From positions 1 to 12,912 of the IMG/VR virus record IMGVR_UViG_3300032320_002275: 12,912 nucleotides of DNA, one strand, 5' to 3'. The notes under the pieces are model-generated. The model was not told the DNA's origin. It was given only the letters and a program-made list of their open reading frames with translations, and did not search any database. This document shows positions 1-12,912 of this stretch, one piece after another (position 1 is the stretch's first letter; the number at the start of each line of letters is the position of its first letter). The stretch comes from a virus. Both the position numbers and the translations under genes were made by a program.

Positions 1-65
1 ATAAAAGCGAAATAGCAAAGATTAACGATAATTACGCACGAAAAAATATAAAATTTAGATTTTAA
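1..65 (+). CDS. Duplicate copy of the 3' end of the 12369..12854 gene (partial at window edge)
   Basis: Same sequence as 12790..12854; stop TAA at 63..65. Confidence 0.9.
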   Translation, partial: KSEIAKINDNYARKNIKFRF

Positions 66-123
66 ATAAAGAATTATGAAAAATAAAAGTACAATGTTAT
101 TAGTAGGTATTGGAGTAGCTTAT
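1..123. repeat. Terminal overlap, left copy (exact duplicate of 12790..12912); marks a circular or circularly permuted genome of 12,789 bp
   Basis: Base-by-base comparison shows 1..123 and 12790..12912 are identical. The junction lies inside the 12369..12854 ORF. Confidence 0.95.
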
Positions 124-372
124 TTATTATACCGATTATACAAAAAAAATTCAATGGCACCAGTTACTACAACTGCAAGTCCAAGTCCAACCCCAACAAT
201 ATTAAAAGCTGATACTGAACAAATTATATCAAATGGAGTGCCTAATCAATTTTTAGTAGATAAAGTAAGAGATGAAGCTATTTATTATGAAATACCTAAT
301 ACTTATCAAACTTTTTACGCAAGAGGAAATAATTTAGCTGGTGCAATATCAAAAGTACCATCTACTTGCTAA
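76..372 (+). CDS. N-terminally membrane-anchored protein of unknown function (putative virion membrane protein)
   Basis: 98-aa ATG ORF in the plus-strand block. It has one hydrophobic segment, MLLVGIGVAYLLYRLYKKN, followed by a Pro/Ser/Thr linker (TTTASPSPTPT). Confidence 0.6.
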   Translation: MKNKSTMLLVGIGVAYLLYRLYKKNSMAPVTTTASPSPTPTILKADTEQIISNGVPNQFLVDKVRDEAIYYEIPNTYQTFYARGNNLAGAISKVPSTC

Positions 373-398
373 CATTTTTAACCTTTAAATAAAATAAA

Positions 399-671
399 AT
401 GAGCAATTTTAATATAAAAGCTGGATATATAACTTATGATGTAAACTTTATAACTTATGATGCTAACGGATTTATAACAAGTAATTGCAATAGTATTACT
501 TTTATTAATTATGGTTCTAATGTAGTTACAATAGAAAGCGTTGTATTACAACAAAATCAAAGTTTTTCAATAGACGGAAACGCTGGCGAAATAATGAATA
601 AGCAATTTTTAGCAACCTTTACTGGTGCTGGAACAAATAATTTAGTTACAATAAAGAAAAACTATATCTAG
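399..671 (+). CDS. Small beta-rich protein immediately upstream of the fibre gene; possible vertex or spike-base component
   Basis: 90-aa ORF with alternating hydrophobic/polar beta-strand-like pattern (ITFINYGSNVVTIESVVL). Its stop TAG overlaps the GTG start of the fibre gene (TAGTG). The function is a guess from position only. Confidence 0.5.
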   Translation: MSNFNIKAGYITYDVNFITYDANGFITSNCNSITFINYGSNVVTIESVVLQQNQSFSIDGNAGEIMNKQFLATFTGAGTNNLVTIKKNYI

Positions 672-2692
672 TGAGTAATATTAGCGTAGATTTTGATGTG
701 TTAAACCAAAGGGGTAGCCCAGCTTGGTTTACTGATACTTTTGCCAATATACCTACTGCTGGCTTTGTAGGTCGTATGTTTATTTCAAAAGATACTTTTG
801 CGTTTTATAGAGATACTGGTAGTGGGTGGGATTTAATTGGTGGGCCAGGCATTGGTACATTAACTGGTAGTGGTGTAGTAGGGCAAGTATCATTTTTTAA
901 TGGTACCCAAGTTATTACTGGTAACAATAATTTATTTTGGGACAATGTTAATAGTAGGTTAGGAATTAATACAACGACGCCGGGTGCACCTTTAGATATT
1001 CACGCTACTGGTACTAATGCACAATTTAATGGTACTGGTACAAATAATGCTTATTTAGTATTTCAAAATGCTGGATCTAACAAATGGCGTATAGGCAATA
1101 ATTATAATGGTGGTGCTAATAGTTTTGATTTATATAATAATACAACTACAAGTACAATTTTTTCAGTTAATTCTAATGGTACATTTACATTATCAACAAG
1201 TTTATTTGCTAATTTTGGTATTGCTTTAAAAGATGTATCAGGCGTAAATAGTAATGGAAGTTTAGGTTTAGGTAGTACTGGTGCTGGTTTAAGTCTTGGA
1301 ATGAATGTTACTACTACAAATTATTTTGTATTGCCTACATCAGTAGGATATTCATATACTTTTCCAGCAACTACTGGTACAATAGCTTTAACAAGTAATT
1401 TAAGTAGTTACGTACCTTATACTGGTGTAACGCAAAGTGTAGATTTAGGTATTAATGATTTAAGTTCAAGATATTTAATTGCAAATGGTAATAGTACTGC
1501 TTCAGGAATATTAGCTTTAAAAATTAGCAATACTGTAACTGCTACAAGTGGTTATGGAACAATAGGTGCTTTATCAGGTCAACAATTTGCATTTGTATCT
1601 TATCTTGCAAGTAATTATGATAAAATTGCATATTTAAATTTAAGTGCATTATCTGATAGTACACCTAGAGTATTTACTTTACCAAATGCAACTGGCACCT
1701 TAGCTTTAACAAGTGATATTACATCTGCAATAAGTGGTACTACAAATAGGCTTGCAAAGTTTACCAGTACAAATGTTATTGGTAATAGTATGGTAAGTGA
1801 TGACGGCACTACTTTAACCAGTACTGGTGCTACAAGGTCAAATTTTTATATAAAAGCTGCAAACAATTCGGAATATGGGCAACTTGCATTCACAAATGGT
1901 ACAAACGCATTAAGCGGAGGTATAAGCTATAACAATAGCAGTCAGTATATGCAGTTTGAAACAAATACAAGTGAGTGGATGAGATTGAATAGTAATGGTA
2001 ATTTTTTAATAGGAACTACAACTGATAATGGTAATAAATTACAAGTAAATGGAACTGGATATTTTTCAGGTAATGTAGGAATTGGTGTAACTACTCCAAG
2101 TTATAAATTAGATGTCGCAGCACCTGGTAGTCCATCTGCAAGAGTTAGAAATAGCGATTTAGGTGGAACTGCAACTTTATTATTAGAAACTGCAAATAAC
2201 TTTAGCGGTACTTGTCAAACTTATGTTAAATGTATTGGTGCAGTAGGTAGTGGTGTTTCAGATTTAGCTTTTGGAACTGCGGGTGCAAGTGGTGACGCAA
2301 CTGCAGCTGAAAAAATGCGTATTAGTTCTGCTGGAGTAGTTACAATAACTAATTTAGGAACTGGTGCCGTTACATCAACGGCTGGAGTATTATCTGTTAC
2401 TTCTGATATGTATTTAAAAATAGAAGATGGATTTATAGATAATGCTTTAGAAAAAATATTAAAATTGACTCCTAGATATTTTTATTGGAAAAAAGAAAGT
2501 GGTCTACCTATTGATTTAAGACAATTAGGATTTTATGCTCAAGAAGTTAATCAAGTTTTAGGAGAAGAAGTATCAAATACACCAAAAAAAGAAAGTGATA
2601 AATGGGGTATTTATGATAGAGGTATAATTGCTATGCTAACAAAAGCTATCCAAGAATTAAACCAAAAATTAATAAATAATAATATAAATTAA
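671..2692 (+). CDS. Receptor-binding fibre or spike protein with C-terminal peptidase S74 intramolecular chaperone (autoproteolytic) domain
   Basis: 673-aa ORF with a GTG start. It is Gly/Thr/Asn/Ser-rich and has repeated fibre modules (RLGINTTTPGAPLDI and NVGIGVTTPSYKLDV; TFPATTGTIALTSNLSS and TLPNATGTLALTSDITS). The C-terminus SDMYLKIEDGFIDNALEKILKLTPRYFYWKK...LGFYAQEVNQVLGEEV...IIAMLTKAIQELNQKL matches the S74 pattern (SD.rLK ... w.w ... G.iAQEv ... l.al.i.aiqeL). The predicted cleavage Ser is about residue 578 (nt 2402). Confidence 0.85.
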   Translation: MSNISVDFDVLNQRGSPAWFTDTFANIPTAGFVGRMFISKDTFAFYRDTGSGWDLIGGPGIGTLTGSGVVGQVSFFNGTQVITGNNNLFWDNVNSRLGINTTTPGAPLDIHATGTNAQFNGTGTNNAYLVFQNAGSNKWRIGNNYNGGANSFDLYNNTTTSTIFSVNSNGTFTLSTSLFANFGIALKDVSGVNSNGSLGLGSTGAGLSLGMNVTTTNYFVLPTSVGYSYTFPATTGTIALTSNLSSYVPYTGVTQSVDLGINDLSSRYLIANGNSTASGILALKISNTVTATSGYGTIGALSGQQFAFVSYLASNYDKIAYLNLSALSDSTPRVFTLPNATGTLALTSDITSAISGTTNRLAKFTSTNVIGNSMVSDDGTTLTSTGATRSNFYIKAANNSEYGQLAFTNGTNALSGGISYNNSSQYMQFETNTSEWMRLNSNGNFLIGTTTDNGNKLQVNGTGYFSGNVGIGVTTPSYKLDVAAPGSPSARVRNSDLGGTATLLLETANNFSGTCQTYVKCIGAVGSGVSDLAFGTAGASGDATAAEKMRISSAGVVTITNLGTGAVTSTAGVLSVTSDMYLKIEDGFIDNALEKILKLTPRYFYWKKESGLPIDLRQLGFYAQEVNQVLGEEVSNTPKKESDKWGIYDRGIIAMLTKAIQELNQKLINNNIN

Positions 2693-2693
2693 T

Positions 2694-2954
2694 ATGAAAC
2701 AAATACAAGCAGTATCTATATGGTTTAACGGACAAGTGGTACAAGCTACTATATTTAATTTAACAAGTATTAATGATAATTTAATAGATAGTGCTACATT
2801 TTATTGGCAATTATTTGATGCTACAAATATACAAGTAGCACAAGGCAATCTAACTATGGGTAATTCTAATTATACAAATTATTCTAGTAGTTCAGATTCT
2901 AACGAATACGCTTACCAATGGGGTGCAACACAATTAAATTTAACCTTAGTTTAA
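2694..2954 (+). CDS. Hypothetical protein downstream of the fibre gene
   Basis: 86-aa ORF starting 2 nt after the fibre stop. No motif recognised. Confidence 0.5.
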   Translation: MKQIQAVSIWFNGQVVQATIFNLTSINDNLIDSATFYWQLFDATNIQVAQGNLTMGNSNYTNYSSSSDSNEYAYQWGATQLNLTLV

Positions 2955-2969
2955 TCAAAACAATATAAT

Positions 2970-3131
2970 ATGGAAAACCAAAAAGCCCTAGAATTAATTA
3001 AAGCCTTAATTGATGAATCAATTAAAAAAGGTGTATTACTAAACATTGATACGGCAGTACAAGTCGCAGAAGCGTTTAATACAATCGTAAAGGCAATTCA
3101 AAACAATGATTCTAATGAATCAGTAATTTAA
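2970..3131 (+). CDS. Small helical hypothetical protein (53 aa), not in the supplied ORF track
   Basis: Hand translation: MENQKALELIKALIDESIKKGVLLNIDTAVQVAEAFNTIVKAIQNNDSNESVI, stop TAA 3129..3131. It fills an otherwise non-coding gap in a tightly packed operon. Confidence 0.45.
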   Translation: MENQKALELIKALIDESIKKGVLLNIDTAVQVAEAFNTIVKAIQNNDSNESVI

Positions 3132-3136
3132 TTGAA

Positions 3137-3310
3137 ATGACTGAAAAAAATGGTATAAGTGGGTCGATTGCTAGTGTAGGTACTTACATATTAAGTATTA
3201 ACCAAATTAACGCATATATGTCGTTATTTTTGGGCTTACTCTCTGGTATTAGTTCCATTTATACCATTTTATATTTTTACAATTTAAACAAAAAGAAAAA
3301 TGAAAAATAA
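3137..3310 (+). CDS. Small TM protein (57 aa), holin or antiholin candidate, not in the ORF track
   Basis: Hand translation: MTEKNGISGSIASVGTYILSINQINAYMSLFLGLLSGISSIYTILYFYNLNKKKNEK. It has a hydrophobic core and a charged Lys-rich C-terminus, and lies upstream of the lysozyme gene. Confidence 0.5.
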   Translation: MTEKNGISGSIASVGTYILSINQINAYMSLFLGLLSGISSIYTILYFYNLNKKKNEK

Positions 3311-3461
3311 AAAAACTACAATATTTGGTTTATTAGCTGCAATTAGTGGCTATTTTGCTACGGCTGGTACTGGTAAAGTTCAAGTTATTGCTCAAGCAAT
3401 AGCTGGTATTAGTACATTTTTATTAGGTGGAGTGGCAGCTGATTCTAAAAAAGATAATTAA
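3300..3461 (+). CDS. Small two-TM protein (53 aa), holin candidate, not in the ORF track
   Basis: Hand translation: MKNKKTTIFGLLAAISGYFATAGTGKVQVIAQAIAGISTFLLGGVAADSKKDN. It has two hydrophobic stretches and a charged C-tail. It overlaps the previous ORF by 11 nt and ends 8 nt before the lysozyme start. Confidence 0.55.
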   Translation: MKNKKTTIFGLLAAISGYFATAGTGKVQVIAQAIAGISTFLLGGVAADSKKDN

Positions 3462-3469
3462 TTGACTAT

Positions 3470-4015
3470 ATGGCTAGTAATAAAAAAGTATTAGCTACTT
3501 TAGTTATATCAACAATAGTAATATATATGTTACGTAAACGAATAGCTACGGCTTTAAATAATACCCCTTTTGCTTTAGTTAGCGACAAGCTATTTAATGT
3601 AATAGCTAGTTTAGAGGGGTTTGTTGCTATACCTATTTGGGACTATATGCAATATAGCGTTGGTTACGGAAGTGGCTATAATTGGGACTTAAAAAGACCA
3701 GTTATTAAAACTGATGTAATTGACAAAGAAACGGCTAAAAAGTGGCTATTATTGGAAGCCCAAGATAAATACGATTTTGTAAAAAGTAAGGTTAAAGTAC
3801 CAGTTACCGATAACCAGTTATTAGCTATGGCTAGTTTTACTTATAATGTAGGCGAAAATGCTTTTGCTAATAGTACACTACTAAGATTGCTTAATGAGGG
3901 GGTTAGTAAGGACAAGGTAGCCCTACAATTTGATAGGTGGGTATATGCTGGGGGAAAGGTTAGTAGTGGCTTAAAAAAGCGTAGAATAGCTGAAAAGCAA
4001 TTATTTTTATCATAG
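3470..4015 (+). CDS. GH24 (T4-type) lysozyme/endolysin with N-terminal TM segment (signal-anchor-release or membrane-tethered form)
   Basis: The sequence SLEGFVAIPIWDYMQYSVGYGSGY gives Glu49 and Asp58 with the spacing of T4 lysozyme E11/D20, followed by the S/T-x-G-Y-G turn. Downstream are TDNQLLAMASFTYNVGENAF and GLKKRRIAEKQLF, both typical of GH24. The N-terminus KKVLATLVISTIVIYMLRKR is hydrophobic. Confidence 0.85.
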   Translation: MASNKKVLATLVISTIVIYMLRKRIATALNNTPFALVSDKLFNVIASLEGFVAIPIWDYMQYSVGYGSGYNWDLKRPVIKTDVIDKETAKKWLLLEAQDKYDFVKSKVKVPVTDNQLLAMASFTYNVGENAFANSTLLRLLNEGVSKDKVALQFDRWVYAGGKVSSGLKKRRIAEKQLFLS

Positions 4016-4044
4016 GGGGGTTTTTGCATAGTATAAAGGTAGAG

Positions 4045-4069
4045 GGGGTATTTTTATACCCCTTTTTTT
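4045..4069 (+). terminator. Intrinsic terminator hairpin at the convergent junction (end of the plus-strand block)
   Basis: GGGGTAT (4045..4051), loop TTTT, ATACCCC (4056..4062), then T7 (4063..4069). An A-run follows on the opposite strand. The hairpin overlaps the stop codon of the minus-strand ORF 4054..4245. Confidence 0.6.
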
Positions 4070-4245
4070 ATGTATATGCGTTCTACATATAATCTAGTGG
4101 TTTTTTCGTACAAATTAAAATACTCGGCATCTAGGGTTCTAGCAAAAGTTATAAAATTATTAATACTAGAAATATTATGATATTTACGAACTGGCTGGAT
4201 ATTATCCTTAAAAAATACAATAGCACTATACAACTTTTTAGCCAT
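4054..4245 (-). CDS. Hypothetical protein (63 aa), last gene of the minus-strand block
   Basis: ORF overlaps the upstream gene by 8 nt, which suggests coupled translation. No motif recognised. Confidence 0.5.
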   Translation of the reverse strand: MAKKLYSAIVFFKDNIQPVRKYHNISSINNFITFARTLDAEYFNLYEKTTRLYVERIYIKKGV

Positions 4246-4483
4246 TTTTAAGGGGTTTATCGTTTATAGCGAAGTATCTAACATTGTCTTGGGTAACTGC
4301 CCTAATTTTGCGTTTTACTACCAGCGGTGCAACTGCTCGTAATATAGTAAATCTTTGCCATTTTGTAATGTCTTGCAAATCTTTTAAACTTACTACTTTG
4401 CGTTCTAGAATGATAAAATAAATTTTTGTCTTATTTGTCATAGTGTTATATTTGTAGTGAAAAGTGTTAGAGTAGGCAATCAT
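4238..4483 (-). CDS. Small winged-helix-like DNA-binding protein (putative transcription regulator)
   Basis: 81-aa ORF. KIYFIILERKVVSLKDLQDITKWQRFTILRAVAPLVVKRKIRAV resembles a helix-turn-helix plus wing. An alternative start at Met15 (nt 4441) is possible. The CTGACTATAA motif lies 8 nt upstream of ATG 4483. Confidence 0.5.
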   Translation of the reverse strand: MIAYSNTFHYKYNTMTNKTKIYFIILERKVVSLKDLQDITKWQRFTILRAVAPLVVKRKIRAVTQDNVRYFAINDKPLKNG

Positions 4484-4491
4484 TGTCTATT

Positions 4492-4552
4492 TTATAGTCA
4501 GCGAGAAGTCAGCCTAAAAACTGGCTTCTCGTTTTTTTATGACTACAAACTA
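4492..4552 (-). promoter_or_regulatory. Bipartite upstream element, copy 1: TAGTTTG (4552..4546), 44 nt, then CTGACTATAA (4501..4492), then ATG 4483
   Basis: The same two words occur in the same order upstream of two other minus-strand genes. TAGTTTG resembles the Bacteroidota -7 box TAnnTTTG but is one base shorter. Confidence 0.35.
4502..4538 (+). terminator. Strong stem-loop plus T7, oriented as a plus-strand terminator inside the minus-strand block
   Basis: CGAGAAGTCAG (4502..4512) pairs with CTGGCTTCTCG (4521..4531): 11 bp with one G-T wobble and an 8-nt loop. T7 follows at 4532..4538. On the minus strand no U-run follows the stem. Confidence 0.5.
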
Positions 4553-4556
4553 ACCA

Positions 4557-4685
4557 TTAGTATCGTTTTATTTTTGAATTGTTAATTATATGCTCTATAA
4601 AAGCTATAAACATTATATACATAGCAAATAATATAGCTAGTGGCATTAATACAAATATTAAATAAAGTCTTTTTAAAATTGTCAT
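4557..4685 (-). CDS. Micro-ORF encoding a 42-aa single-TM peptide
   Basis: Hand translation: MTILKRLYLIFVLMPLAILFAMYIMFIAFIEHIINNSKIKRY. Its ATG overlaps the stop of the preceding micro-ORF (ATGA). Confidence 0.4.
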   Translation of the reverse strand: MTILKRLYLIFVLMPLAILFAMYIMFIAFIEHIINNSKIKRY

Positions 4686-4759
4686 ATATCCTTGTTTAAT
4701 AGTTTATAAAATAATTTTTTCGCTAATTCCCATATAATTATTGTTAATATAATTGTCAT
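4682..4759 (-). CDS. Micro-ORF encoding a 25-aa hydrophobic peptide
   Basis: Hand translation: MTIILTIIIWELAKKLFYKLLNKDI. Its ATG overlaps the TGA stop of the helicase gene (ATGA), and its own TGA overlaps the next ATG. Confidence 0.35.
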   Translation of the reverse strand: MTIILTIIIWELAKKLFYKLLNKDI

Positions 4760-5746
4760 AATATTTTATAATTGTTTTTATTATCTTTTACAATATAGTT
4801 TTTATTTATCCACAATTTAATTAAGTTTTTTGCATAGGCTTTACTGGTGGCAGTCCTTTCAATAATTTCGCTAGATATATCATTATAGGGCATTGGCATA
4901 GTAACTATTTGATGCAATAATCGTTTACTTTCAATTTCATCTAAGTCGGTAGCTTTTTTTCCACTATTCTTTGCTTTGTCGGTTTCAGTTTGCTCAAATA
5001 TGCCGTTAAAATTCATTAATGTAATAGGTTCAAAGTCGGAATCGCTACGCATAAAACGGCTGGATAGTACATAGGTATTTTTATCTTTGTCTTTTGTAAT
5101 ATCTAAAGTGGATTGAGCAAACCTATCACTAGCACTACCAATGTGTCCAGTAGTCATTAAATTGCTTTTTGACTGGTGCAAAACCGATATTAGCAATATA
5201 TTATAATGCTTAGTTATCTTTTTTAGCCAGCTAGTTAATAAACTACTTTCTTTCTCATCATTGTAATTTACCAATAAATCAAGCAATCCGTCCACAATTA
5301 GTATAGAGCAGTCTAAATTAAGCTCTAAATAGCGTTCAATCATTAATTTAATGGCGTTGCTGGAATCTTCGCGAACTTGAAATGCGTCAAAATAAGGTGG
5401 TAAATCGTTAATTTGAGCAAATCCTTTAATTTTATTAATAGTCCTATAAAAGTCGTAGTCGCTACTTTCGGTATCAATTAAACATACTTTAGCCCTATTT
5501 TGGGGGGTATGCAATTTCATTGTGAAAATATCATAGGTATTAAATACGCTACTAATCATAGCACATATAAAGGTTGATTTACCAGCTTTAGGGTAACCCC
5601 GAAAATATACAAAAGTTTTGGAGTGAGCCGATATGTTTACCTTGTATGGTAAAAATAATGTTTTCCTTGCTAGGTATATAGTTGGGGTTGTATTTGCGTT
5701 TTTCTAGTAAATCATCAATGTTTATCTTATAGTCAGTATTTTCCAC
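4756..5746 (-). CDS. RecA-fold replicative helicase (DnaB C-terminal / RepA, AAA_25-like) with C-terminal wHTH; reading frame interrupted by a +1 change at 5597..5600
   Basis: Walker A GYPKAGKST (5598..5572), Walker-B-like ILIVDGLLDL, ISVLHQSKS and GHIGSASDRFAQSTLDI are typical of DnaB-C/RepA helicases. The tracked ORF (4756..5559) starts downstream of the P-loop. The N-terminal 52 codons (GTG 5746 to stop at 5588) are in a different frame. Confidence 0.75.
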
Positions 5747-5777
5747 ATTTATAAATTTTCAAGTAAAGCACAAACTA
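5727..5777 (-). promoter_or_regulatory. Bipartite upstream element, copy 2: TAGTTTG (5777..5771), 34 nt, then CTGACTATAA (5736..5727), at the helicase 5' end
   Basis: Same words and order as copies 1 and 3. Here the second word lies just inside the GTG-5746 reading frame. Confidence 0.3.
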
Positions 5778-5812
5778 AAAATACAAATATTAGTATTAAA
5801 ACTGCTTGTCCG

Positions 5813-6082
5813 TTAATGGTTGTAAATAACCATTTCGCTATTTTTATCATTTTCAAATGTTTTAGTTTTTTCTTCAATTTTGTTTAAAAAAGTAATTGCT
5901 TGTTCTATGCTAATATCCATTAATACTAAATCGTATTCTTCTATATTATTAGATATTTTAGCTTTGTAAATTTCTAGTGCAAAATGCTCAAACTTACTTA
6001 GACCAGGTATAGGTACCACTAAGCGTTTAAAATTATCTTGTAATGGTACTACTGGATAGGCTGGTTGAGTTAAATTATTCAT
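5813..6082 (-). CDS. Hypothetical protein (89 aa)
   Basis: ORF in the minus-strand block with an 8-nt overlap with the upstream gene. No motif recognised. Confidence 0.5.
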   Translation of the reverse strand: MNNLTQPAYPVVPLQDNFKRLVVPIPGLSKFEHFALEIYKAKISNNIEEYDLVLMDISIEQAITFLNKIEEKTKTFENDKNSEMVIYNH

Positions 6083-6269
6083 TAGTAATAGGTTTTAATG
6101 GTTCTGCTTCGTAAATTTTGTAGTCGGGTTGCGTAGGCTTTACCTTATATTCATTTTTCCACATTGTATATAGTTTTCCTTCAATAGTAAAACTGATATA
6201 GGTTTTGCTATTTTTTGTGGTTTTGTCCCAAGCACCAATACTTGTTTTTTTTTCAGTTTCGTTTTGCAT
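6075..6269 (-). CDS. Hypothetical small protein (64 aa); faint resemblance to DUF736-type small beta proteins
   Basis: IGAWDKTTKNSKTYISFTIEGKLYTMWKNEYKVKPTQPDYKIY recalls the G.w.k....G..yls.kl....a.l..n......pdy.v pattern. This comes from memory only, so the assignment is weak. Confidence 0.45.
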   Translation of the reverse strand: MQNETEKKTSIGAWDKTTKNSKTYISFTIEGKLYTMWKNEYKVKPTQPDYKIYEAEPLKPITNE

Positions 6270-6316
6270 TTTTTTAAATTTTGAGTTTTTGCTAATAATA
6301 AAAAGTAATTCATAGG

Positions 6317-6463
6317 TTATTTAGTTAAATAGTCTATATGGCATTTTGCACTAGTTAAACTGCTATGCTCACTCATATCAATTTGAACAATATAAACTTT
6401 TGGTAATAAGTGGTCGTATAAAGTTTCAAAAATAACATAACCTAAATAATAAATTTTTTTCAT
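6317..6463 (-). CDS. Small hypothetical protein (48 aa), not in the ORF track
   Basis: Hand translation: MKKIYYLGYVIFETLYDHLLPKVYIVQIDMSEHSSLTSAKCHIDYLTK. It starts 1 nt after the stop of the 6465..6749 ORF. Confidence 0.4.
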   Translation of the reverse strand: MKKIYYLGYVIFETLYDHLLPKVYIVQIDMSEHSSLTSAKCHIDYLTK

Positions 6464-6464
6464 T

Positions 6465-6749
6465 TTATAAATTTTTTAAGTGTTGGTTAAGTGAGGATAT
6501 ATCTTTATCAAATTGCTCAATGCTATCATCAATAATATTAATAATTTCATTAGGCAAATGAAATGGTAACATATCATTAGTAATATGCACCATTTTAATT
6601 TCTGCGTCATCAGTTGCAGTAAATAAAATTGAAACATCTCGGTACTGGGTTAATTTAAAAATTTCTACCAGTTTTTCTTTTTTGCGTGCAATTTTTTGGA
6701 TTTCAAGCAATACGGCGTTGGTACTGCTCAACGATTTGAATTGAATCAT
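6465..6749 (-). CDS. Hypothetical protein (94 aa), first gene of the minus-strand block
   Basis: ORF begins 11 nt downstream of a CTGACTATAA motif. No domain recognised. Confidence 0.5.
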   Translation of the reverse strand: MIQFKSLSSTNAVLLEIQKIARKKEKLVEIFKLTQYRDVSILFTATDDAEIKMVHITNDMLPFHLPNEIINIIDDSIEQFDKDISSLNQHLKNL

Positions 6750-6760
6750 TTTTGTAAATT

Positions 6761-6815
6761 TTATAGTCAGTAAAATAGAATAACGATATAAAATAAAGGA
6801 TATTATATCAAACTA
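6761..6815 (-). promoter_or_regulatory. Bipartite upstream element, copy 3: TAGTTTG (6815..6809), 38 nt, then CTGACTATAA (6770..6761), then ATG 6749
   Basis: It shares 13 nt (ATTTTATAGTCAG on the plus strand) with copy 1 and 12 nt with copy 2. Confidence 0.35.
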
Positions 6816-6885
6816 CCAAAATAATTAATATAATATCTATTTTAAAGGTCAAAAGTGTTAAAATATATATGTTTTAGGGGTATTT

Positions 6886-6957
6886 CTGTTTTATTAGATT
6901 TCTTGTTGCGAGCTTATGCTCGGCAAAAGCAAATCTAATAAAAATAAAACAAGAAAA
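6886..6957. promoter_or_regulatory. Cluster of overlapping dyad symmetries in the divergent intergenic region (operator or origin candidate)
   Basis: TTTTATTAGATTT (6889..6901) is the reverse complement of AAATCTAATAAAA (6931..6943). TTTCTTGTT (6899..6907) is the reverse complement of AACAAGAAA (6948..6956). An inner mini-hairpin is CGAGC-TTAT-GCTCG (6909..6922). The two long pairs interleave rather than nest. Confidence 0.5.
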
Positions 6958-7002
6958 AGACATTTACCCGATTTTTTTTTCCACAAGCCTAAAAATTTAA
7001 CA

Positions 7003-7032
7003 TTTTAGGACGTTTTTAGGGCTATTTTAAGG
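7003..7032 (+). repeat. Three TTTTAGG / TTTTAAGG direct repeats at 11-bp phasing (iteron-like)
   Basis: TTTTAGG at 7003..7009 and 7014..7020, and TTTTAAGG at 7025..7032. There is one further direct copy at 6872..6878 and an inverted copy CCTAAAA at 6988..6994. A T9 run lies at 6972..6980. Confidence 0.45.
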
Positions 7033-7103
7033 TTTTGTAAACAAAAACAATAATATTTTGTTATTATAGTTTATTGTCTTAATTTTATGGCAATTAGATT
7101 TTT

Positions 7104-7529
7104 ATGAACAAAAGAAATTGGTGGTTACTTCCAGCAACAATTATTGGTTATTTAGTTTATAAAAAATATGTACTAGCAAAAACTGTGTCAGTTTTTTTTA
7201 AGACAATAGATTTTAGTAGTATGTCATTATTGTACCCAACTATTAACATAGTAGTACAAGTAAATAACCCAACCGATATTACGGCAACAATACAAAATAT
7301 TAAAGGAGATTTATATTTAAACAATACTTATATAGGTAATGTAATAGGAATAACGCCTACTACATTAGTAACTGGTAGTTCTATTTTAAGAATACCAGTA
7401 ACTTTATCTTATACTGGTGTAGCATCTTTAATAAAAGGTCTAAGCACAAAAGGAATTAATTTAAGATTTAACGGAAGTATAATGGTTGATTTAATAGTAT
7501 TGCCTTTAAATTTTGAGTATAATATATGA
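7104..7529 (+). CDS. N-terminally anchored protein with LEA_2 (LEA14 / NDR1-HIN1-like) beta-sandwich-like domain
   Basis: TM segment WWLLPATIIGYLVYKKY, then TINIVVQVNNPTDITATIQNIKGDLYLNNTYIGNV...GSSILRIPVTL. This matches the LEA_2 pattern (l.v.NPN.. i..i.g.l.l.g..ig ... g....v.vpv). First gene of the plus-strand block. Confidence 0.5.
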   Translation: MNKRNWWLLPATIIGYLVYKKYVLAKTVSVFFKTIDFSSMSLLYPTINIVVQVNNPTDITATIQNIKGDLYLNNTYIGNVIGITPTTLVTGSSILRIPVTLSYTGVASLIKGLSTKGINLRFNGSIMVDLIVLPLNFEYNI

Positions 7530-8503
7530 TTAGTAAAAATATGGTGCTACAAAAATTGGCACCTTATACCAATTTTAAAAAAGTATTAATTGAGGACCAA
7601 AATACTGGCGATATTATACAAGGTATTTTAGATAATCACGATAACTATCAAAGTGAATACGACAAGATTAGTGAAATGTTTATCGACGATAATGAAGTAG
7701 AAACGGCAAAAAATGTTTTTGAATTTTTAAAAGATAATGTTCCCTATTATGTTGAGCCTATTGAAAAACAAACTTTAAGAAGTCCTAGTGCTATTATAAG
7801 TATTAAACAAGGTGCCGACTGCAAAAGTTACGCCAGTTTTATTAACGGCATTATGAGTTCACTCAATAGAAAAGGAATATTTAAAGTACCACTAGCGTAT
7901 CGTTTTGCTAGTTATAGATATGATACAAGAGAACCCCAACACGTTTTTGCTGTATTATATCCTGGTACTAAAAATGAGGTATGGGTAGATCCCGTACTAA
8001 ATAAATTCGACCAAAGAAAAGAACCAGTATTTATAAAAGATAAAAAAATAAAAATGGCACTAATAGCTATGTCAGGCACATCAACACAAGGTACGGCAAC
8101 TTTACAAGAGATGCAAAATTACCGAGATAAATTAGTTAGTTTAAAAAACAAATATTTGAATAGTGGTTTTATTACGCCAGGAAGTCAAGAGGAAAACCAA
8201 TATATTATGGCGATTGATAAAGTAACAAAAGCTATTCAATTTGCAAGTATTAGCGGAGTTCCAAATGTTAATGGAATATTTGATAGTCCCGACGAAGGCG
8301 GTATAGATTGGGGTAATATATTTGGAAAACTTATTGATACTGGTGCAAGTTTAATACAAAGAAATAACCAGCCTAGTGGTGGTATGTTTTTTCCTACTAC
8401 GCAATCTACTATGCAACCTATTACAAATCAAGGTATTAATATTAATACATTATTATTAATAGGTGCTGGTGGTTTAGCTTTATATTTAATTCTTAGGAAA
8501 TAA
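7526..8503 (+). CDS. Transglutaminase-like (Cys-His-Asp) peptidase-fold protein with C-terminal TM tail
   Basis: KQGADCKSYASFINGIM (Cys99), PQHVFAVLY (His139) and EVWVDPVLN (Asp155) occur in the order and spacing of the transglutaminase-core triad. C-terminal anchor is LLLIGAGGLALYLILRK. ATGA overlap with the upstream gene. Confidence 0.6.
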   Translation: MISKNMVLQKLAPYTNFKKVLIEDQNTGDIIQGILDNHDNYQSEYDKISEMFIDDNEVETAKNVFEFLKDNVPYYVEPIEKQTLRSPSAIISIKQGADCKSYASFINGIMSSLNRKGIFKVPLAYRFASYRYDTREPQHVFAVLYPGTKNEVWVDPVLNKFDQRKEPVFIKDKKIKMALIAMSGTSTQGTATLQEMQNYRDKLVSLKNKYLNSGFITPGSQEENQYIMAIDKVTKAIQFASISGVPNVNGIFDSPDEGGIDWGNIFGKLIDTGASLIQRNNQPSGGMFFPTTQSTMQPITNQGININTLLLIGAGGLALYLILRK

Positions 8504-8505
8504 TA

Positions 8506-9096
8506 ATGGCATATTATACTAATAATATAGGTTATAAGCAAATGACAGCTATTGGAACCAAATTTATACCAATATATACTGGCGAACCAATATCATCAGT
8601 AATTGCTACTGCTGGTGCTACATTAATAGCGTCTTGGAATGACTGGTTTACACGCCCAGCGTTTGACGCAAATAGATTAATTAATAGTGTTAAACCACAA
8701 TTAGCTAATAGTGATGCAAGGCAAAGATTAGCTTTAGTAATAGCTACTTCTCAAAAAATTAGTCCTAGAGCTAGGGATGTAGGTGCAGAAAAACTTTTTT
8801 TATGGTATAAAAATACATACAACGAAGATTATAAAACATTATCATTAGAAGATAAAGAGTATTATAATAAGTTTTTACAAACTGCAATACAAACGCAAGC
8901 TGACGGAAATAATTTTTGGGCTAATTCTCAAAGAGCAATGTTTACAAATTCAGAATTAAATTATAATGCAAATCCAGTACAAGCAATTACAAATACTGCA
9001 AGCAATATATTTACTAATTTAACAAAAAGTCCAAGTAGTTTAATTTTATATACTGGCATTGGACTAGGTTTATATTTAATATTAAAAAATAAATAA
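8506..9096 (+). CDS. C-tail-anchored membrane protein, unknown function
   Basis: 196-aa ORF. C-terminus LILYTGIGLGLYLILKNK is nearly the same anchor as the preceding protein, and the two share the 12-nt string TTTATATTTAAT. Confidence 0.55.
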   Translation: MAYYTNNIGYKQMTAIGTKFIPIYTGEPISSVIATAGATLIASWNDWFTRPAFDANRLINSVKPQLANSDARQRLALVIATSQKISPRARDVGAEKLFLWYKNTYNEDYKTLSLEDKEYYNKFLQTAIQTQADGNNFWANSQRAMFTNSELNYNANPVQAITNTASNIFTNLTKSPSSLILYTGIGLGLYLILKNK

Positions 9097-9419
9097 TGAA
9101 AAAGGGAAATTTAATTTTTATCGTAGGGGGTTTAGGTTTATTGTATTATTTTTATATGCGTAAAAAAAATCCAATACCAGTTACTAAAACATTAGTACCA
9201 ACTCAAACAAATGTAGAACCATATGTTTACCCAGCTGGTTTATTAGAACTAGACTTTGTTGCAAATGGAGTAGAAACTGCTCAATTATATCAAGGGCAAT
9301 TAAGACCTATGACTGCTGCATATGCTCAAATGTATGCACCAAATCATTGGGCAAATACTAAAATAATACCAGATATTATATATAGAAGCATTCCAAGAGG
9401 TGCAGTATTAGACGTATAA
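9096..9419 (+). CDS. N-terminally anchored membrane protein, unknown function
   Basis: 107-aa ORF with TAATG overlap with the upstream gene. N-terminal TM is LIFIVGGLGLLYYFYMRKKN. Confidence 0.55.
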   Translation: MKKGNLIFIVGGLGLLYYFYMRKKNPIPVTKTLVPTQTNVEPYVYPAGLLELDFVANGVETAQLYQGQLRPMTAAYAQMYAPNHWANTKIIPDIIYRSIPRGAVLDV

Positions 9420-9429
9420 AATTAATAAA

Positions 9430-9966
9430 ATGACACAAGCACAAAAAACTGCAAAAGCAAAATTTAAGCAAGCTATTGCTTATAGACAAAAAACTGGCGT
9501 TTCTTTAAAAGAAGCGTTTGCACATATATACGGAAAAAAGAAAGTAGGTGCAGTTAAGAAAAAGTCGGCACCTAAAAAGAAAGTAGCTAAGAAAAAAGTA
9601 GCTAAAAAAGTTGTTAAGAAAAAATATAGTTTAAATAAAAAGAAAGATAAACTATACTCAGCTAAGAAACCAGGTAAGCGTTTAAGTAAAACTGGTAAAA
9701 CTTATTACGAAAATAGAGAAAATCGTAGCGACAAAGGAAAGTTATTAGGTATTGAAAGTAATTTAAGTATGAGTTTAATTAAAAGACTTGAAGATATTAA
9801 TAAAGAAATAGAAAAAAGGCAAGATGTTATTGCTAATGTAATACAAAATAAAACATATTTTGTAAATAAAAATGGCAAATCTTGGTATCCTAAATTTATG
9901 AAATTAGCAAAAGGTCATATTGCTGAATTGAAAAAACATAAAATAGAAATTAAAAAATTAGTTTAA
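9430..9966 (+). CDS. Highly basic Lys-rich, histone-H1-like protein (putative DNA-condensing core protein)
   Basis: The stretch GKKKVGAVKKKSAPKKKVAKKKVAKKVVKKKYSLNKKKDKLYSAKKPGKRLSKTGK has 26 Lys in 56 residues by my count. It includes KKVAK repeats encoded by 15-nt DNA repeats near 9577..9606. The C-terminal half looks helical. Confidence 0.65.
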   Translation: MTQAQKTAKAKFKQAIAYRQKTGVSLKEAFAHIYGKKKVGAVKKKSAPKKKVAKKKVAKKVVKKKYSLNKKKDKLYSAKKPGKRLSKTGKTYYENRENRSDKGKLLGIESNLSMSLIKRLEDINKEIEKRQDVIANVIQNKTYFVNKNGKSWYPKFMKLAKGHIAELKKHKIEIKKLV

Positions 9967-10006
9967 TAAAAATTTTCTCATAAACAATAATTAAAAATCA
10001 AACAAA

Positions 10007-10438
10007 ATGGCAAGAAGAAAAAGAGCAACTAAAAAAAGTAGCTACCGCAGACGCAGAATGTCAGGCGTAGGTGCTATGGGTAGTCAAATTACTGGTGCAT
10101 TATATACAATCGCTGGTGCCGTTGCTGCTGGGGCAGTAACAAAATTTTTACCCGCAACTATGAACGAAAAGCTAAAAGCAGCAGTTCCAGTAGTAGTAGG
10201 TATTATGTTACCTAAATATTTAAAAGGTAATGTCGGACAAGGTATCGGTGCTGGTATGGTAGCAACTGGTGGACTTAAATTAGTACAATCATTCGGCATT
10301 CTTAACGGAATCGGTGCTTATGGTGGTTATGCTGGTTATCAAGTACCGCAAGTAGCTGGTAATTATAACAACGCTGGTTTAATGGATACTAGCTATATGA
10401 CGCCGTCAATCGCTGGTATGGATGAGGGGAATTGTTAA
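10007..10438 (+). CDS. Membrane protein with Arg/Lys-rich N-terminal arm and Gly/Ala-rich TM segments
   Basis: MARRKRATKKSSYRRRRM has 10 basic residues out of 18. It is followed by GSQITGALYTIAGAVAAGAV, AAVPVVVGIMLP and GIGAGMVATGGL. Confidence 0.6.
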   Translation: MARRKRATKKSSYRRRRMSGVGAMGSQITGALYTIAGAVAAGAVTKFLPATMNEKLKAAVPVVVGIMLPKYLKGNVGQGIGAGMVATGGLKLVQSFGILNGIGAYGGYAGYQVPQVAGNYNNAGLMDTSYMTPSIAGMDEGNC

Positions 10439-10495
10439 TCTAACACTATTCACCTTTAAATAAAAATTTAATAAAAAAATAAAAATTAAAAAACA

Positions 10496-11155
10496 ATGGC
10501 AACTCAAATGGGACAAAGAATGGTCTTTGAAAATGCAAAAGCATTAGTAAGAGGTCTAGGTTATAGCGTAGATCAAGCAGTTCTAACGCAATCTTATTTA
10601 CGCAGTGAGGTAGCTTTAAGCACTTCTATTGCAAACTATCATTTACCAGTATTGGTTAATGATACCCAAAATGGTGCGGTTCGTGTAAACGAAAAGCGTC
10701 TAAATTTACAAGATATATTTGTGGCAAGTGAAATTTCAGTATTAATTGGAGTAGGTTCTGCAACAAGTACAAAAGCACCATTATATACTTACCCTAATGG
10801 TGTTATATTTACAAGTGCAACAGATGATGATTTATTGTCAATTTACAATGGCTCATTGAATTTAACAATTAACAATCAACAAGTATTACCAGCTTGGGAC
10901 GTATATCGTCATTACTACGTGCCACAAACACAAGGTGGTGTTGGTATTACTGCACAAACTATTTTCCCAGTAGATCAAAACGATGGTAGCGAAAATGGAT
11001 TTTATCCAGTAGAGCCAGGAATCGTATTTAATGGTGCTGCTAACATCAATTTCCAATTAACGGCAAATGGTGCACCAGCAACAATTTTAGCTAATAGTTT
11101 TATCTGCGTAATTCAAAGAGGTATCTTGTTACAAAACGTAACAACTGTTAAATAA
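10496..11155 (+). CDS. Candidate major capsid protein (beta-rich, 219 aa); fold not verified
   Basis: It has the longest A-rich leader in the plus block and is followed by a structured GC-rich terminator-like element. Composition is Asn/Gln/Thr/Val/Gly-rich with no TM and beta-strand-like periodicity. Assigned by context and composition only. Confidence 0.4.
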   Translation: MATQMGQRMVFENAKALVRGLGYSVDQAVLTQSYLRSEVALSTSIANYHLPVLVNDTQNGAVRVNEKRLNLQDIFVASEISVLIGVGSATSTKAPLYTYPNGVIFTSATDDDLLSIYNGSLNLTINNQQVLPAWDVYRHYYVPQTQGGVGITAQTIFPVDQNDGSENGFYPVEPGIVFNGAANINFQLTANGAPATILANSFICVIQRGILLQNVTTVK

Positions 11156-11165
11156 AAATATGCTT

Positions 11166-11216
11166 TGGCGAAGCTAAACGCTACTGCCAGCGGTCAGTAA
11201 CTACCGCTATTTTTTA
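11166..11216 (+). terminator. Tandem hairpins plus T-run after the candidate capsid gene (attenuator or terminator)
   Basis: Imperfect hairpin TGGCGAAGC...GCTACTGCCA (11166..11189). Then AGCGGT (11189..11194) pairs with ACCGCT (11203..11208), followed by ATTTTTT. The segment is locally GC-rich in an AT-rich genome. Confidence 0.45.
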
Positions 11217-11235
11217 AATTATTAAAAAAAAAGAT

Positions 11236-11643
11236 ATGCGTATTAAAAGATACCAAGCCGTAGAAATCAATGTACCAAGTGGAAGTACTTTAACTTTCTT
11301 TTTGTTCACTGACCAACCACAGCTAAGAAATGCTAAAATACAAGGTATTCAAGTATATACGCCTACTGCAATTACAAAAACGCCTTTAAGCGGTGCTACG
11401 CCAGTAACACTAGCAGATTTAAAGCAATCGTTTTTAACATTGTATCAAGGCGACTTACAAATTATATATAGACTACCATTGTTAGCGTTTAACAATATAC
11501 AAGATTTAACAAGTCCACACGTTTGGGAATTACCTGAAATGAACGATATTGATATAAGCTGGACTAAAAGTAGTGTTACAACGGCAGCTGCATTAGGCAC
11601 TACTGGTGTAACTTATAGTTTCGGAATTTATTATTATTTATAA
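11236..11643 (+). CDS. Second small beta-rich structural protein candidate (135 aa), possible minor or second capsid protein
   Basis: STLTFFLFTDQPQLRNAKIQGIQVYTP ... LQIIYRLPLLAF ... GVTYSFGIYYYL has beta-strand-rich character and no TM. It is adjacent to the 219-aa candidate. Confidence 0.35.
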   Translation: MRIKRYQAVEINVPSGSTLTFFLFTDQPQLRNAKIQGIQVYTPTAITKTPLSGATPVTLADLKQSFLTLYQGDLQIIYRLPLLAFNNIQDLTSPHVWELPEMNDIDISWTKSSVTTAAALGTTGVTYSFGIYYYL

Positions 11644-11655
11644 TATAGTTTTATT

Positions 11656-12369
11656 ATGGCAGTTCAAAAAGCAATGACTACTGGAACTAACGGAGTTATG
11701 GACTGGTTTGACAGAAATGCAACCAGTCCGTACTACTCGGTTTGTGAGATAATTAGTCCTACAAAAAAAGAGTTACTATTTTCTTGTAATGAGGATAGTG
11801 TAGATAATGCAAGGCGAATTTTAGAAGAAAATATATCTGCGTTTGAACAAAACGGAGTTAATACCTTATATGCTTTAATCTTGCACCCTAAAAAAGACAA
11901 GACGGGATATATTACTATGAATACGCCAAGCCACGCAATGTTAAAATTTCGACCAGCAGAACTAGAGGCACCAATCTACGGAGTAGGTGCATATACTGGT
12001 GGGGGTGGTAGCAATCGTTATGAAATGGAAAAAATAATGGAAAAGCTAAATTTATTGGAAAGTAAGTTAGCAGAAGCAGACTTAGAGGAATACGAAGAAA
12101 CGCCACAAAACCCAATAAACGCTATGCTTAGTAATATGGCTGCAAATCCACAAGTACAAGAGGCATTAATTAGCGGTTTAATTGGCGTAGTAGGTGGTTT
12201 TTTAAATAATGGCAAACAAATGCAAGGTGTAGCTGGAATAGGACAAGTTAATGAAGAAGCTATTTTAATATTGGATAGCTTAATAAAAAAAGGAGTTAGT
12301 TTAGAACATTTAAGAAAATTAGATGCTATGACTAATACCAAATTACAAAGTTTATTAATAATGTTATAA
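11656..12369 (+). CDS. Hypothetical protein with central acidic coiled-coil-like segment (scaffold or assembly candidate)
   Basis: 237-aa ORF containing YEMEKIMEKLNLLESKLAEADLEEYEE and a Gly-rich hydrophobic patch LISGLIGVVGGFL. No enzymatic motif recognised. Confidence 0.45.
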   Translation: MAVQKAMTTGTNGVMDWFDRNATSPYYSVCEIISPTKKELLFSCNEDSVDNARRILEENISAFEQNGVNTLYALILHPKKDKTGYITMNTPSHAMLKFRPAELEAPIYGVGAYTGGGGSNRYEMEKIMEKLNLLESKLAEADLEEYEETPQNPINAMLSNMAANPQVQEALISGLIGVVGGFLNNGKQMQGVAGIGQVNEEAILILDSLIKKGVSLEHLRKLDAMTNTKLQSLLIML

Positions 12370-12854
12370 TGGCAATAGATAAGCAAACGCAAAAACTTTT
12401 ATTATATACTGCAATAGGTGGTGGTGCGTATTTTTTAATACTAAAGCCACTTCTTATTAAATTAGGTGTATTAAAAAGTGCATTAGAATTAGAACAAGAT
12501 TATACTCAAAAAGTAAATATAGATGCGTATATTAATAATTCTATAAAAACACAAACGCCAACTAAATCAAAAGGGGAATGGCAGATTATAGCAGACCAAA
12601 TATATAACGATCTAAAGTTTAGCGGAATTGCCGACAATAAAAGTGATGCTGGCTATCAAGTAGCAAGAGTACAAAATGATGCCGATATTGCTACATTAAT
12701 ACAAGTTTTTGGAATGAGGCAAGAAAGTTTTTTTGGTATTAATATTGGGGGACTACAAAATTTACCACAATTTATTATAGGTAATTTAGATAAAAGCGAA
12801 ATAGCAAAGATTAACGATAATTACGCACGAAAAAATATAAAATTTAGATTTTAA
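12369..12854 (+). CDS. N-terminally anchored membrane protein, unknown function; spans the circular junction
   Basis: 161-aa ORF with TAATG overlap with the upstream gene. TM segment is LLLYTAIGGGAYFLILKPL. Its last 65 nt are the sequence at 1..65. Confidence 0.55.
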   Translation: MAIDKQTQKLLLYTAIGGGAYFLILKPLLIKLGVLKSALELEQDYTQKVNIDAYINNSIKTQTPTKSKGEWQIIADQIYNDLKFSGIADNKSDAGYQVARVQNDADIATLIQVFGMRQESFFGINIGGLQNLPQFIIGNLDKSEIAKINDNYARKNIKFRF

Positions 12855-12912
12855 ATAAAGAATTATGAAAAATAAAAGTACAATGTTATTAGTAGGTATT
12901 GGAGTAGCTTAT
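12790..12912. repeat. Terminal overlap, right copy (exact duplicate of 1..123)
   Basis: Identical 123-nt string at both window ends. Confidence 0.95.
12865..12912 (+). CDS. Duplicate copy of the 5' end of the 76..372 gene (partial at window edge)
   Basis: Identical to 76..123. Confidence 0.9.
   Translation, partial: MKNKSTMLLVGIGVAY

Follow-up and report, generated by a model that had tools for sequence, protein, structure and literature searches.

A circular 12.8-kb genome from a large freshwater family of probable tailless, membrane-containing jelly-roll phages without a detectable packaging motor

Few tailless phages with a membrane are in culture, and they are thought to be badly under-counted. 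Among the described systems closest to the one considered here, the capsid is built from one single jelly-roll (SJR) protein in SPV1, from a double jelly-roll (DJR) protein in FLiP and from two SJR proteins in the Helvetiavirae; the first two have no packaging ATPase, the last have an ATPase of the FtsK-HerA type, and vertex proteins trace back to small SJR proteins that form pentamers (PMC8812541). Here we describe the DNA of the IMG/VR virus record IMGVR_UViG_3300032320_002275, positions 1 to 12,912 (hereafter the window, meaning this whole stretch of 12,912 nucleotides). Our results suggest, with a probability of about 0.6, that the window represents, in full, the circular genome (12,789 bp, probably double-stranded DNA, dsDNA) of an uncultured, lytic, tailless and membrane-containing jelly-roll phage that has no packaging motor and belongs to a large freshwater family. 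An initial annotation of this DNA had proposed a new lineage of tailless, membrane-containing phage; the analysis supports this, the tailless form, the membrane and a Bacteroidota host all being deduced from gene content. On our best reading the lineage has the rank of a new family or higher.

In probable working the window resembles SPV1 (Portogloboviridae), which has a circular DNA genome and no packaging ATPase, and whose SJR protein VP4 is the top structural match in PDB of g24, the major capsid protein candidate of the window. The SPV1 virion contains lipid, and its genome is condensed by a basic protein. SPV1 differs in its hyperthermophilic archaeal host (Sulfolobales) and its genome size (~20 kb), it shows no sequence similarity to g24, and the structural likeness is weak; the window, in turn, encodes a GH24 lysozyme, an S74 fibre and a RepA-like helicase related to that of Flavobacterium phages, and the family occurs in bacterial bins of metagenome-assembled genomes (MAGs). 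The Helvetiavirae (Matshushitaviridae, Sphaerolipoviridae and Simuloviridae) are tailless with an internal membrane, P23-77 has a small circular dsDNA genome, and the genes for their small vertical SJR capsid proteins lie side by side; P23-77 VP17 and a chain of HHIV-2 match g24 and its neighbour g25, respectively. However, the FtsK-HerA packaging ATPase of this group has no counterpart in the window or in ~90 relatives, and the profiles of g24 and g25 are unrelated both to each other and to PDB capsid sequences, which rules out, at the profile level, a pair of paralogues like VP16 and VP17.

The ecology recalls FLiP and PhiCjT23 (Finnlakeviridae), with which the window shares fresh water, a small circular genome, the lack of an ATPase and, on our reading, an internal membrane and probably the host phylum (Bacteroidota); the FLiP penton is also among the structural matches of g24. 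FLiP, however, has single-stranded DNA (ssDNA), a DJR capsid protein and a rolling-circle Rep, whereas the window has a single jelly-roll, no Rep and helicase-based replication. PM2 and the other Vinavirales (Corticoviridae, Autolykiviridae) are similar to the window as we read it in their ~10-kb circular dsDNA, tailless form, internal membrane, many small membrane proteins and vertex spikes; no counterpart of their DJR protein and A32-like ATPase, or of the rolling-circle Rep of PM2, was found in the window. As for the Bamfordvirae in general (Tectiviridae, Corticoviridae, Autolykiviridae, Finnlakeviridae), g24 is one jelly-roll of 219 amino acids (aa), and the other unassigned structural open reading frames (ORFs) are at most 237 aa long. 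The window therefore resembles SPV1 in probable working, FLiP in ecology and PM2 and P23-77 in layout, and is a member of none of these groups. Searches for a DJR capsid protein, an A32-like ATPase or an HUH Rep were negative, in agreement with the initial view that this gene complement fits no family that could be named.

The ends of the window overlap exactly over 123 nt, so the replicon closes at 12,789 bp, as had been proposed. A contig of a relative (L081; JGI 3300020042, contig Ga0206640_1000217, 36,986 bp) holds nearly three head-to-tail copies of a ~12.7-kb unit; the contig is a concatemer rather than a prophage or a larger genome, as expected of a circular or concatemer-forming replicon. 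The window has a GC content of ~30% and 27 plausible genes, arranged as three blocks: a plus-strand block with the fibre and the lysis cassette (76-4015), a minus-strand block with the helicase and small proteins (4054-6749), and a plus-strand block at 7104-12854. This last block is tightly packed, with stop and start codons that overlap or abut, and it fully deserves its earlier description as a tightly coupled structural operon. The terminal repeat and the features of this block are:

1-123, no strand: terminal direct repeat, identical to 12790-12912; assembly overlap closing the circle
7104-7529, plus strand: g18, 141 aa, N-terminal hydrophobic segment and LEA_2 beta-sandwich
7526-8503, plus strand: g19, 325 aa, transglutaminase/papain-like, with a C-terminal transmembrane (TM) anchor
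8506-9419, plus strand: g20 (196 aa, C-terminal TM anchor) and g21 (107 aa, N-terminal TM segment), candidate membrane proteins
9430-9966, plus strand: g22, 178 aa, Lys-rich, candidate genome-condensing protein
10007-10438, plus strand: g23, 143 aa, Arg-rich N-terminal arm and Gly/Ala-rich hydrophobic segments
10496-11155, plus strand: g24, 219 aa, major capsid protein candidate, N-terminal helix and eight-stranded single jelly-roll
11236-11643, plus strand: g25, 135 aa, small jelly-roll-like beta-sandwich, candidate for a penton or minor capsid protein
11656-12369, plus strand: g26, 237 aa, acidic, conserved, one hydrophobic segment, no family match, candidate assembly or membrane protein
12369-12854, plus strand: g27, 161 aa, N-terminal TM segment, kept in distant relatives

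Structure predictions were made for two proteins, g24 and g25. The AlphaFold2 model of g24 (alignment of 94 sequences; pLDDT 91.7, pTM 0.88) has a helix at its N-terminus and, after it, a jelly-roll of eight strands. Foldseek returned no close structure for it. The top PDB match was SPV1 VP4 (E 4.4e-3, probability 0.90, TM-scores 0.30/0.36), followed by P23-77 VP17, the FLiP penton and PRD1 P3 (probability 0.63-0.77); circovirus and plant-virus coats were also found, mixed with non-viral jelly-rolls of the TNF/C1q type. In a library of viral models the best match reached TM-scores of 0.49/0.51 (E 1e-4), with SPV1 VP4 at rank 35. The best neighbours in this library were BFVD I1ZBH9 (211 aa), A0A141HS21 and A0A141HS23 (TM-score up to 0.51). 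The model of g25 (pLDDT 83) is a compact eight-strand sandwich, and its nearest viral structural match was a 135-residue virion chain of HHIV-2 (TM-score 0.40). The initial annotation had seen no DJR-sized capsid protein, and indeed we found no double one; a capsid candidate does exist, however, in the form of the single jelly-roll g24.

Sequence searches with these proteins were negative. The family profiles of g24 and g25 had no match in PDB, Pfam or PHROGs; the PDB profile search with g24 gave nothing, the capsid chains of PRD1, PM2 and FLiP and SPV1 included, and PDB profile searches with g24, g25, g26, g19 and g02 gave nothing or matches at chance level. Nothing meaningful came from PHROG scans of the two jelly-roll families, represented by 94 and 59 diverse sequences, or from scanning the g26 family against Pfam. 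A search for g24 in IMG/VR yielded at least 100 loci, of which the best 80 were kept, and gene comparisons were made on 84-90 loci. The core conserved across loci, including relatives with a g24 only 40-51% identical, comprises g02, the fibre, the lysozyme, g09, the helicase, the LEA_2 protein g18, the transglutaminase-like g19, and g22, g23, g24, g25, g26 and g27; the best-conserved genes in distant relatives are g24, g25 and g02.

Jelly-rolls occur in lectins and spikes too (BclA and C1q are among the matches of g24), and one could picture an enveloped or pleomorphic virus, plasmavirus- or pleolipovirus-like, that has no icosahedral shell and uses g24 and g25 as spike or matrix proteins. Its ~11 proteins with membrane segments, basic nucleoproteins and lack of a packaging motor would suit such a virus, and the circular dsDNA genome of Acholeplasma phage L2 (Plasmaviridae) is about as large. 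Nevertheless, we consider this explanation improbable: conservation is highest in g24 and g25, an unusual trait for receptor-facing spikes, the top structural matches of g24 are capsid shell proteins, a dedicated variable fibre is already present, and the holin-endolysin cassette implies lysis, not budding.

Twelve proteins of the window contain an uncharged hydrophobic 17-mer, our criterion for a TM segment; one of these is a beta-strand of g24, leaving ~11 real TM candidates, in line with the earlier count of at least 10. In the structural module the Pfam matches are limited to LEA_2 and a transglutaminase-like domain, and none of its proteins matched PHROGs or PDB sequences. With its anchored LEA_2 beta-sandwich, g18 is a candidate virion membrane protein. 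The transglutaminase/papain-type domain of g19 was detected as DUF553 (E 2.5e-4), and its Cys99, His139 and Asp155 are invariant across the family; we regard this protein as a candidate virion-associated cell-wall or entry enzyme. Two proteins are strongly basic: g22 has 54 Lys and Arg among its 178 residues (net charge +41), and g23, present in every relative compared, carries the Arg-rich N-terminal arm MARRKRATKKSSYRRRR ahead of Gly/Ala-rich hydrophobic segments, which makes it a candidate membrane-to-DNA linker. The 3' ends of the g19 and g20 genes (8470-8508 and 9060-9098) are 74% identical in DNA, encode the C-terminal TM anchors …GLALYLILRK and …GLGLYLILKNK, and run into stop-start junctions of the TAATAATG type; they may represent a duplicated tail-anchor module.

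Searches of the window ORFs with Pfam, PHROGs and NCBIfam found no terminase, portal, HK97 capsid, tail tube or tape measure protein, no HUH or other rolling-circle Rep, and no FtsK/A32 ATPase, and none of the tailed-phage, HUH Rep and FtsK/A32 hallmarks was detected in ~90 related genomes either. The absences first reported for the window thus held: profile searches and the two structure predictions revealed no portal, terminase, HK97 or tail proteins, profile and Walker A searches no HUH Rep or packaging ATPase, and contrary hits (portal, terminase, HK97 fold, A32-like ATPase), sought by profile and structure, did not turn up. The Walker A pattern [AG]xxxxGK[ST] occurs exactly once in the six frames of the circularised genome, as had been noted, and it lies in the helicase. 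Among ORFs of at least 80 aa in ~90 related loci there was no second P-loop protein beyond the helicase, save chance Walker A matches inside fibre, transglutaminase-like, Lys-rich and small unassigned ORFs. The absence of an FtsK/A32-type ATPase is therefore a property of the family and not an assembly gap.

These results also bear on whether the window could be a highly divergent miniature tailed phage, with an HK97 capsid protein, portal and terminase that have diverged beyond detection. The fibre does match PHROG families named "tail fiber". However, the single P-loop protein is of the AAA_25 type, the ORFs other than the fibre, transglutaminase-like protein and helicase (at most 237 aa) are too short for a portal or large terminase, and the most conserved structural protein is a jelly-roll and not an HK97 fold; to our knowledge, 12.8 kb is also below the smallest tailed-phage genomes. 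We regard this alternative as largely refuted, with a negligible probability.

The family of the window is large and apparently undescribed, freshwater, and without a cultured or deposited member. No high-identity hit to any described family was found among deposited phages or plasmids: a whole-genome megablast against 50,697 phage records gave no match, nor did tblastn with g24, g25, g19 and the fibre against the same number of deposited phage genomes, or with g24 against 72,556 plasmids. In metagenomes, by contrast, g24 relatives form 1,029 clusters at 90% identity, mostly on contigs of 11-14 kb, and an exhaustive search gave 624 clusters at 50% identity. The lineage is apparently undescribed, in line with the initial suggestion of a new one, but it is not a singleton: it is a huge family seen in metagenomes only. 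IMG/VR scans with two very distant g24 homologues returned no loci, and distant representatives lay on short contigs, in which the local gene order was unchanged and no further genes appeared. We found no published description of such a group in open-access text. The name Obscuriviridae belongs to 6.5-kb, ssDNA, microvirus-like Cellulophaga phages and is not relevant here, and the "Charybdis elements" of a preprint are unrelated archaeal elements of 4.6 kb.

In a scan of GTDB (one genome per species) the family was found only on six MAG contigs, all free-standing and several of ~11-13 kb; four of the six lie in bins titled "uncultured Bacteroidetes bacterium" or "uncultured bacterium". The same scan found no copy within any bacterial chromosome, which sets aside an integrated, prophage state, and no integrase was seen in the profile scans of the window. 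Since neither an integrase nor an integrated copy was seen, a lytic or episomal lifestyle is the likeliest. A non-autonomous satellite or plasmid-like replicon that borrows the capsid and packaging of a helper phage would explain why no hallmark morphogenesis gene is recognised by sequence, and its AAA_25 helicase is plasmid-type. This is very unlikely, given that a conserved, tightly coupled module of unique structural-type proteins, two of them jelly-roll-like, takes up over half of the genome, that it has its own fibre and lysis genes, that its size is held at ~11-14 kb over hundreds of lineages, and that neither the plasmid search nor the scan for integrated copies gave a match.

The first plus-strand block contains the fibre and lysis genes:

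76-372, plus strand: g01, 98 aa, N-terminal TM segment, near clade only (12-16 of the 84-90 loci compared)
399-671, plus strand: g02, 90 aa, beta-rich core protein directly 5' of the fibre
671-2692, plus strand: g03, fibre/spike, 673 aa, Pfam Peptidase_S74 and PHROG tail-fibre families
2694-2954, plus strand: g04, 86 aa, small conserved protein 3' of the fibre, no family match
3137-3461, plus strand: g06 (57 aa, 3137-3310) and g07 (53 aa, 3300-3461), overlapping TM proteins, holin-like
3470-4015, plus strand: g08, GH24 endolysin (Phage_lysozyme) with an N-terminal hydrophobic anchor

Both the S74-chaperone fibre and the lysis cassette of the initial annotation were confirmed. In g03, Peptidase_S74 (PF13884) matched residues 589-634 (Pfam; E 2.8e-7, 31.2 bits against a cutoff of 22), alongside the PHROG tail-fibre families. 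Across relatives the first ~60 aa of g03 are conserved, the shaft is variable and the C-terminus is an S74 intramolecular chaperone; conservation of the N-terminus while the rest varies fits a candidate capsid-attachment domain. The adjacent g02, kept even in relatives with a g24 only 40% identical, is a candidate vertex or spike adaptor. The cassette consists of two small TM proteins, g06 and g07, putatively holin-like on account of their position and topology, followed by g08, with GH24 (PF00959) at E 7e-28 (97.9 bits against a cutoff of 22.3) and the endolysin family phrog_7 at 1e-33. The N-terminal hydrophobic signal-anchor of g08 may be of the signal-arrest-release (SAR) type. As a host marker this endolysin was uninformative, since its matches span many phyla.

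The replication module and its borders are as follows:

4041-4066, plus strand: terminator-like hairpin where the late (plus-strand) and replication (minus-strand) modules converge
4054-4685, minus strand: g09 (63 aa, conserved), g10 (81 aa, basic, possible winged helix-turn-helix) and g11 (42 aa, TM)
4756-5746, minus strand: AAA_25/RepA-like helicase, two ORFs (5746-5588 and 5559-4756)
5813-6749, minus strand: g14 (89 aa, conserved), g15, g16 and g17, small early proteins with no family match
6750-7103, no strand: AT-rich intergenic region, 354 bp, where the modules diverge

The matches of the helicase, to AAA_25 and FlaH, agree with its initial identification as the owner of the Walker A motif, in place of an FtsK/A32 packaging ATPase. 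AAA_25 (PF13481) was found in the orthologue of the relative L087 (27.7 bits against a cutoff of 27) and is precomputed for 333-aa orthologues; the frame-repaired helicase of the window scored just under the cutoff (24.1 bits) and matched the primase/helicase family phrog_239 at 1e-5. Against PDB the family profile found only FlaH, a RecA/KaiC-type ATPase, and the nearest relatives of the core by tblastn were primase/helicases of Flavobacterium and Olleya phages. The C-terminal ~80 aa possibly form a DNA-binding domain.

As sequenced, the gene is split into its two minus-strand ORFs, which meet at the Walker A motif. At the junction (5587-5599, minus strand) the sequence reads ...TCG GGG TTA CCC TAA AGC TGG TAA A..., with TAA right after "FSGLP"; the rest of the motif, "KAGKST", is in the +1 frame, in which no ATG, GTG or TTG occurs upstream of it. 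Bridging the ORFs by a +1 shift at CCC_TAA_A (5593-5587) gives a 329-aa protein with GLPKAGKST, the exact sequence found in ~47 relatives with an uninterrupted helicase gene. Of the three proteins that had been said to exceed 300 aa, the fibre and the transglutaminase-like protein do so as sequenced, but the helicase only with this frameshift bridged. The junction is identical in another IMG/VR metagenome record (L001). In six further relatives (L002, L004, L005, L007, L008 and L010) it is 5 nt longer at the same codon, with TAA again after Pro. An example of this second type is L004 (~8400, minus strand; GGG TTG CCG TAA CAA AAG CTG GTA AA), with the Walker frame at +2/-1, and in this sister clade it is maintained in genomes only ~80% identical.

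In all interrupted genomes the 277-278 codons 3' of the junction are open. Over these codons dN/dS is 0.038 between the window and L001 (dS 0.30) and 0.070 between L004 and L010 (dS 1.48), compared with 0.062 for an uninterrupted pair. The downstream codons are under strong purifying selection, with dN/dS in the range 0.04-0.08, and the interrupted helicase genes are therefore expressed. CCC_U-stop sites are prone to shifting, and on this basis the most economical explanation of the window-type junction is a candidate programmed +1 frameshift: the prolyl-tRNA in the P site would slip by +1, from CCC to CCU, at the stop codon, restoring GLPKAGKST. In the 5-nt type, re-initiation is possible at an in-frame TTG eight codons 5' of GKS, giving MYIFGVAVTKAGKST. 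The helicase frameshift offers a compact example of what may be translational recoding, in a phage with likely hosts that make no use of Shine-Dalgarno sequences.

Other observations concern the surroundings of the helicase. The replication/early module (4054-6749) is on the minus strand in the clade of the window and co-directional with the other genes in L081-L084 and L087, so a module inversion occurred within the family. Beside its helicase, L087 (g24 51% identical) encodes a TET-associated glycosyltransferase (5287-6114; PF20691, E 2.9e-31), which points to hypermodified DNA in some members of the family; a gene of this kind is absent from the window. Contigs of 9-15 kb from human faeces, deposited as "Bacteriophage sp." (MT836017.1, MT836227.1), encode a distant full-length helicase homologue (~26% identity). 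The two were ruled out as relatives, since the helicase is all they have in common with the family, and such contigs may represent another uncharacterised group of small phages with a shared replication module.

The type of encapsidated DNA can be weighed on these data. The same tailless membrane particle might contain circular ssDNA, the contigs deriving from its double-stranded replicative form; small size, the lack of a packaging ATPase and basic DNA-binding proteins are typical of ssDNA phages too, and FLiP combines a Flavobacterium host with an internal membrane and no ATPase (PMC8812541). Against it, the window has a RepA/DnaB-like helicase in place of an HUH or rolling-circle Rep, its clade has the replication genes on the opposite strand, a relative carries the TET-associated DNA glycosyltransferase, and the family is abundantly assembled from ordinary metagenomes. 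We consider ssDNA rather unlikely, and favour dsDNA because of the missing rolling-circle Rep, the helicase-type replication module and the glycosyltransferase.

The host is probably a member of the Bacteroidota. Only 2 of 26 genes of the window have a Shine-Dalgarno-like motif, and the 20 nt 5' of start codons are 54% A; upstream regions that are A-rich and poor in Shine-Dalgarno sequences match translation initiation in Bacteroidota. Together with these starts, the labels of the MAG bins and the affinity of the helicase to flavobacterial phages support this host. The Bacteroidota -7 motif TAnnTTTG was not enriched in the window. Two members of the family have a high GC content, L089 (RFTN01000040.1, 54% GC) and L090 (RGZB01000169.1), binned under the titles Proteobacteria in one case and just "bacterium" in the other. 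At five gene starts inspected in L089 the upstream sequence was A-rich without Shine-Dalgarno; the bin label may be wrong, or the family may span several phyla.

Considering the gene content as a whole, we propose the following scheme for a tailless, membrane-containing dsDNA phage. The icosahedral shell would be tiled by g24; at its five-fold vertices g25 and/or g02 would carry a trimeric g03 spike, and an internal lipid membrane would hold g18, g19, g20, g21, g23 and g27. The Lys-rich g22, together with the Arg-rich arm of g23, would condense the genome, which the shell would then enclose, as in the ATPase-less viruses SPV1 and FLiP, with no pumping into a preformed shell. During entry, the membrane-anchored Cys-His-Asp enzyme g19 would act on the cell envelope; replication would begin in the AT-rich region 6750-7103 with the phage helicase and the host replisome, and a holin and the signal-anchored lysozyme would mediate release.

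Several points weigh against this reading. The virion, its membrane, the type of its DNA and the host are predictions from sequence. The structural matches of the g24 model are weak (TM-scores 0.30-0.36 to SPV1 VP4, E ~4e-3), and the non-capsid jelly-rolls BclA, C1q and ExsFA are also in its match list; the designation of g24 as capsid protein therefore rests on fold, conservation and position together. g25 had no significant structural neighbour, and, the models covering g24 and g25, a hidden capsid fold in g20, g26 or g27 is possible. Ordinary metagenome libraries would recover the replicative form of an ssDNA phage too. Finally, the binning of a ~12-kb viral contig into a MAG is weak host evidence, and two relatives are in bins labelled Proteobacteria or unclassified.

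A further idea, which we put forward tentatively and consider doubtful, is that the family represents, in bacteria, the "portoglobovirus-like" ancestral state that has been postulated for Helvetiavirae: a shell made of one SJR protein, a small protein at the vertices, a layer of lipid, a genome condensed by protein and no motor. If so, it would be a lineage of order-to-kingdom rank, abundant in lakes and overlooked because its structural proteins match no profile. The family is diverse, as its 624 g24 clusters indicate, and recurs in lake metagenomes. If the scheme proposed above is right, an SJR capsid with an internal membrane and no ATPase would no longer be a lone hyperthermophilic archaeal case (SPV1) but would occur in common freshwater bacteria too, which would bear on the evolution of jelly-roll capsids and of ATP-driven packaging (PMC8812541). 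Profiles derived from the family would, in addition, serve to annotate thousands of "dark" viral contigs.

Among the non-coding features, the AT-rich region 6750-7103 is a candidate replication origin with divergent promoters. No iterons or strong repeats were found within it, matches to sigma-70-type promoters were fewer than in shuffles, and no tRNAs or Rfam families were found in the window. A second hairpin lies between g10 and g11 (4500-4533; a 13-bp stem, AGCGAGAAGTCAG…CTGGCTTCTCGTT, followed by a T-run) and resembles a plus-strand terminator.

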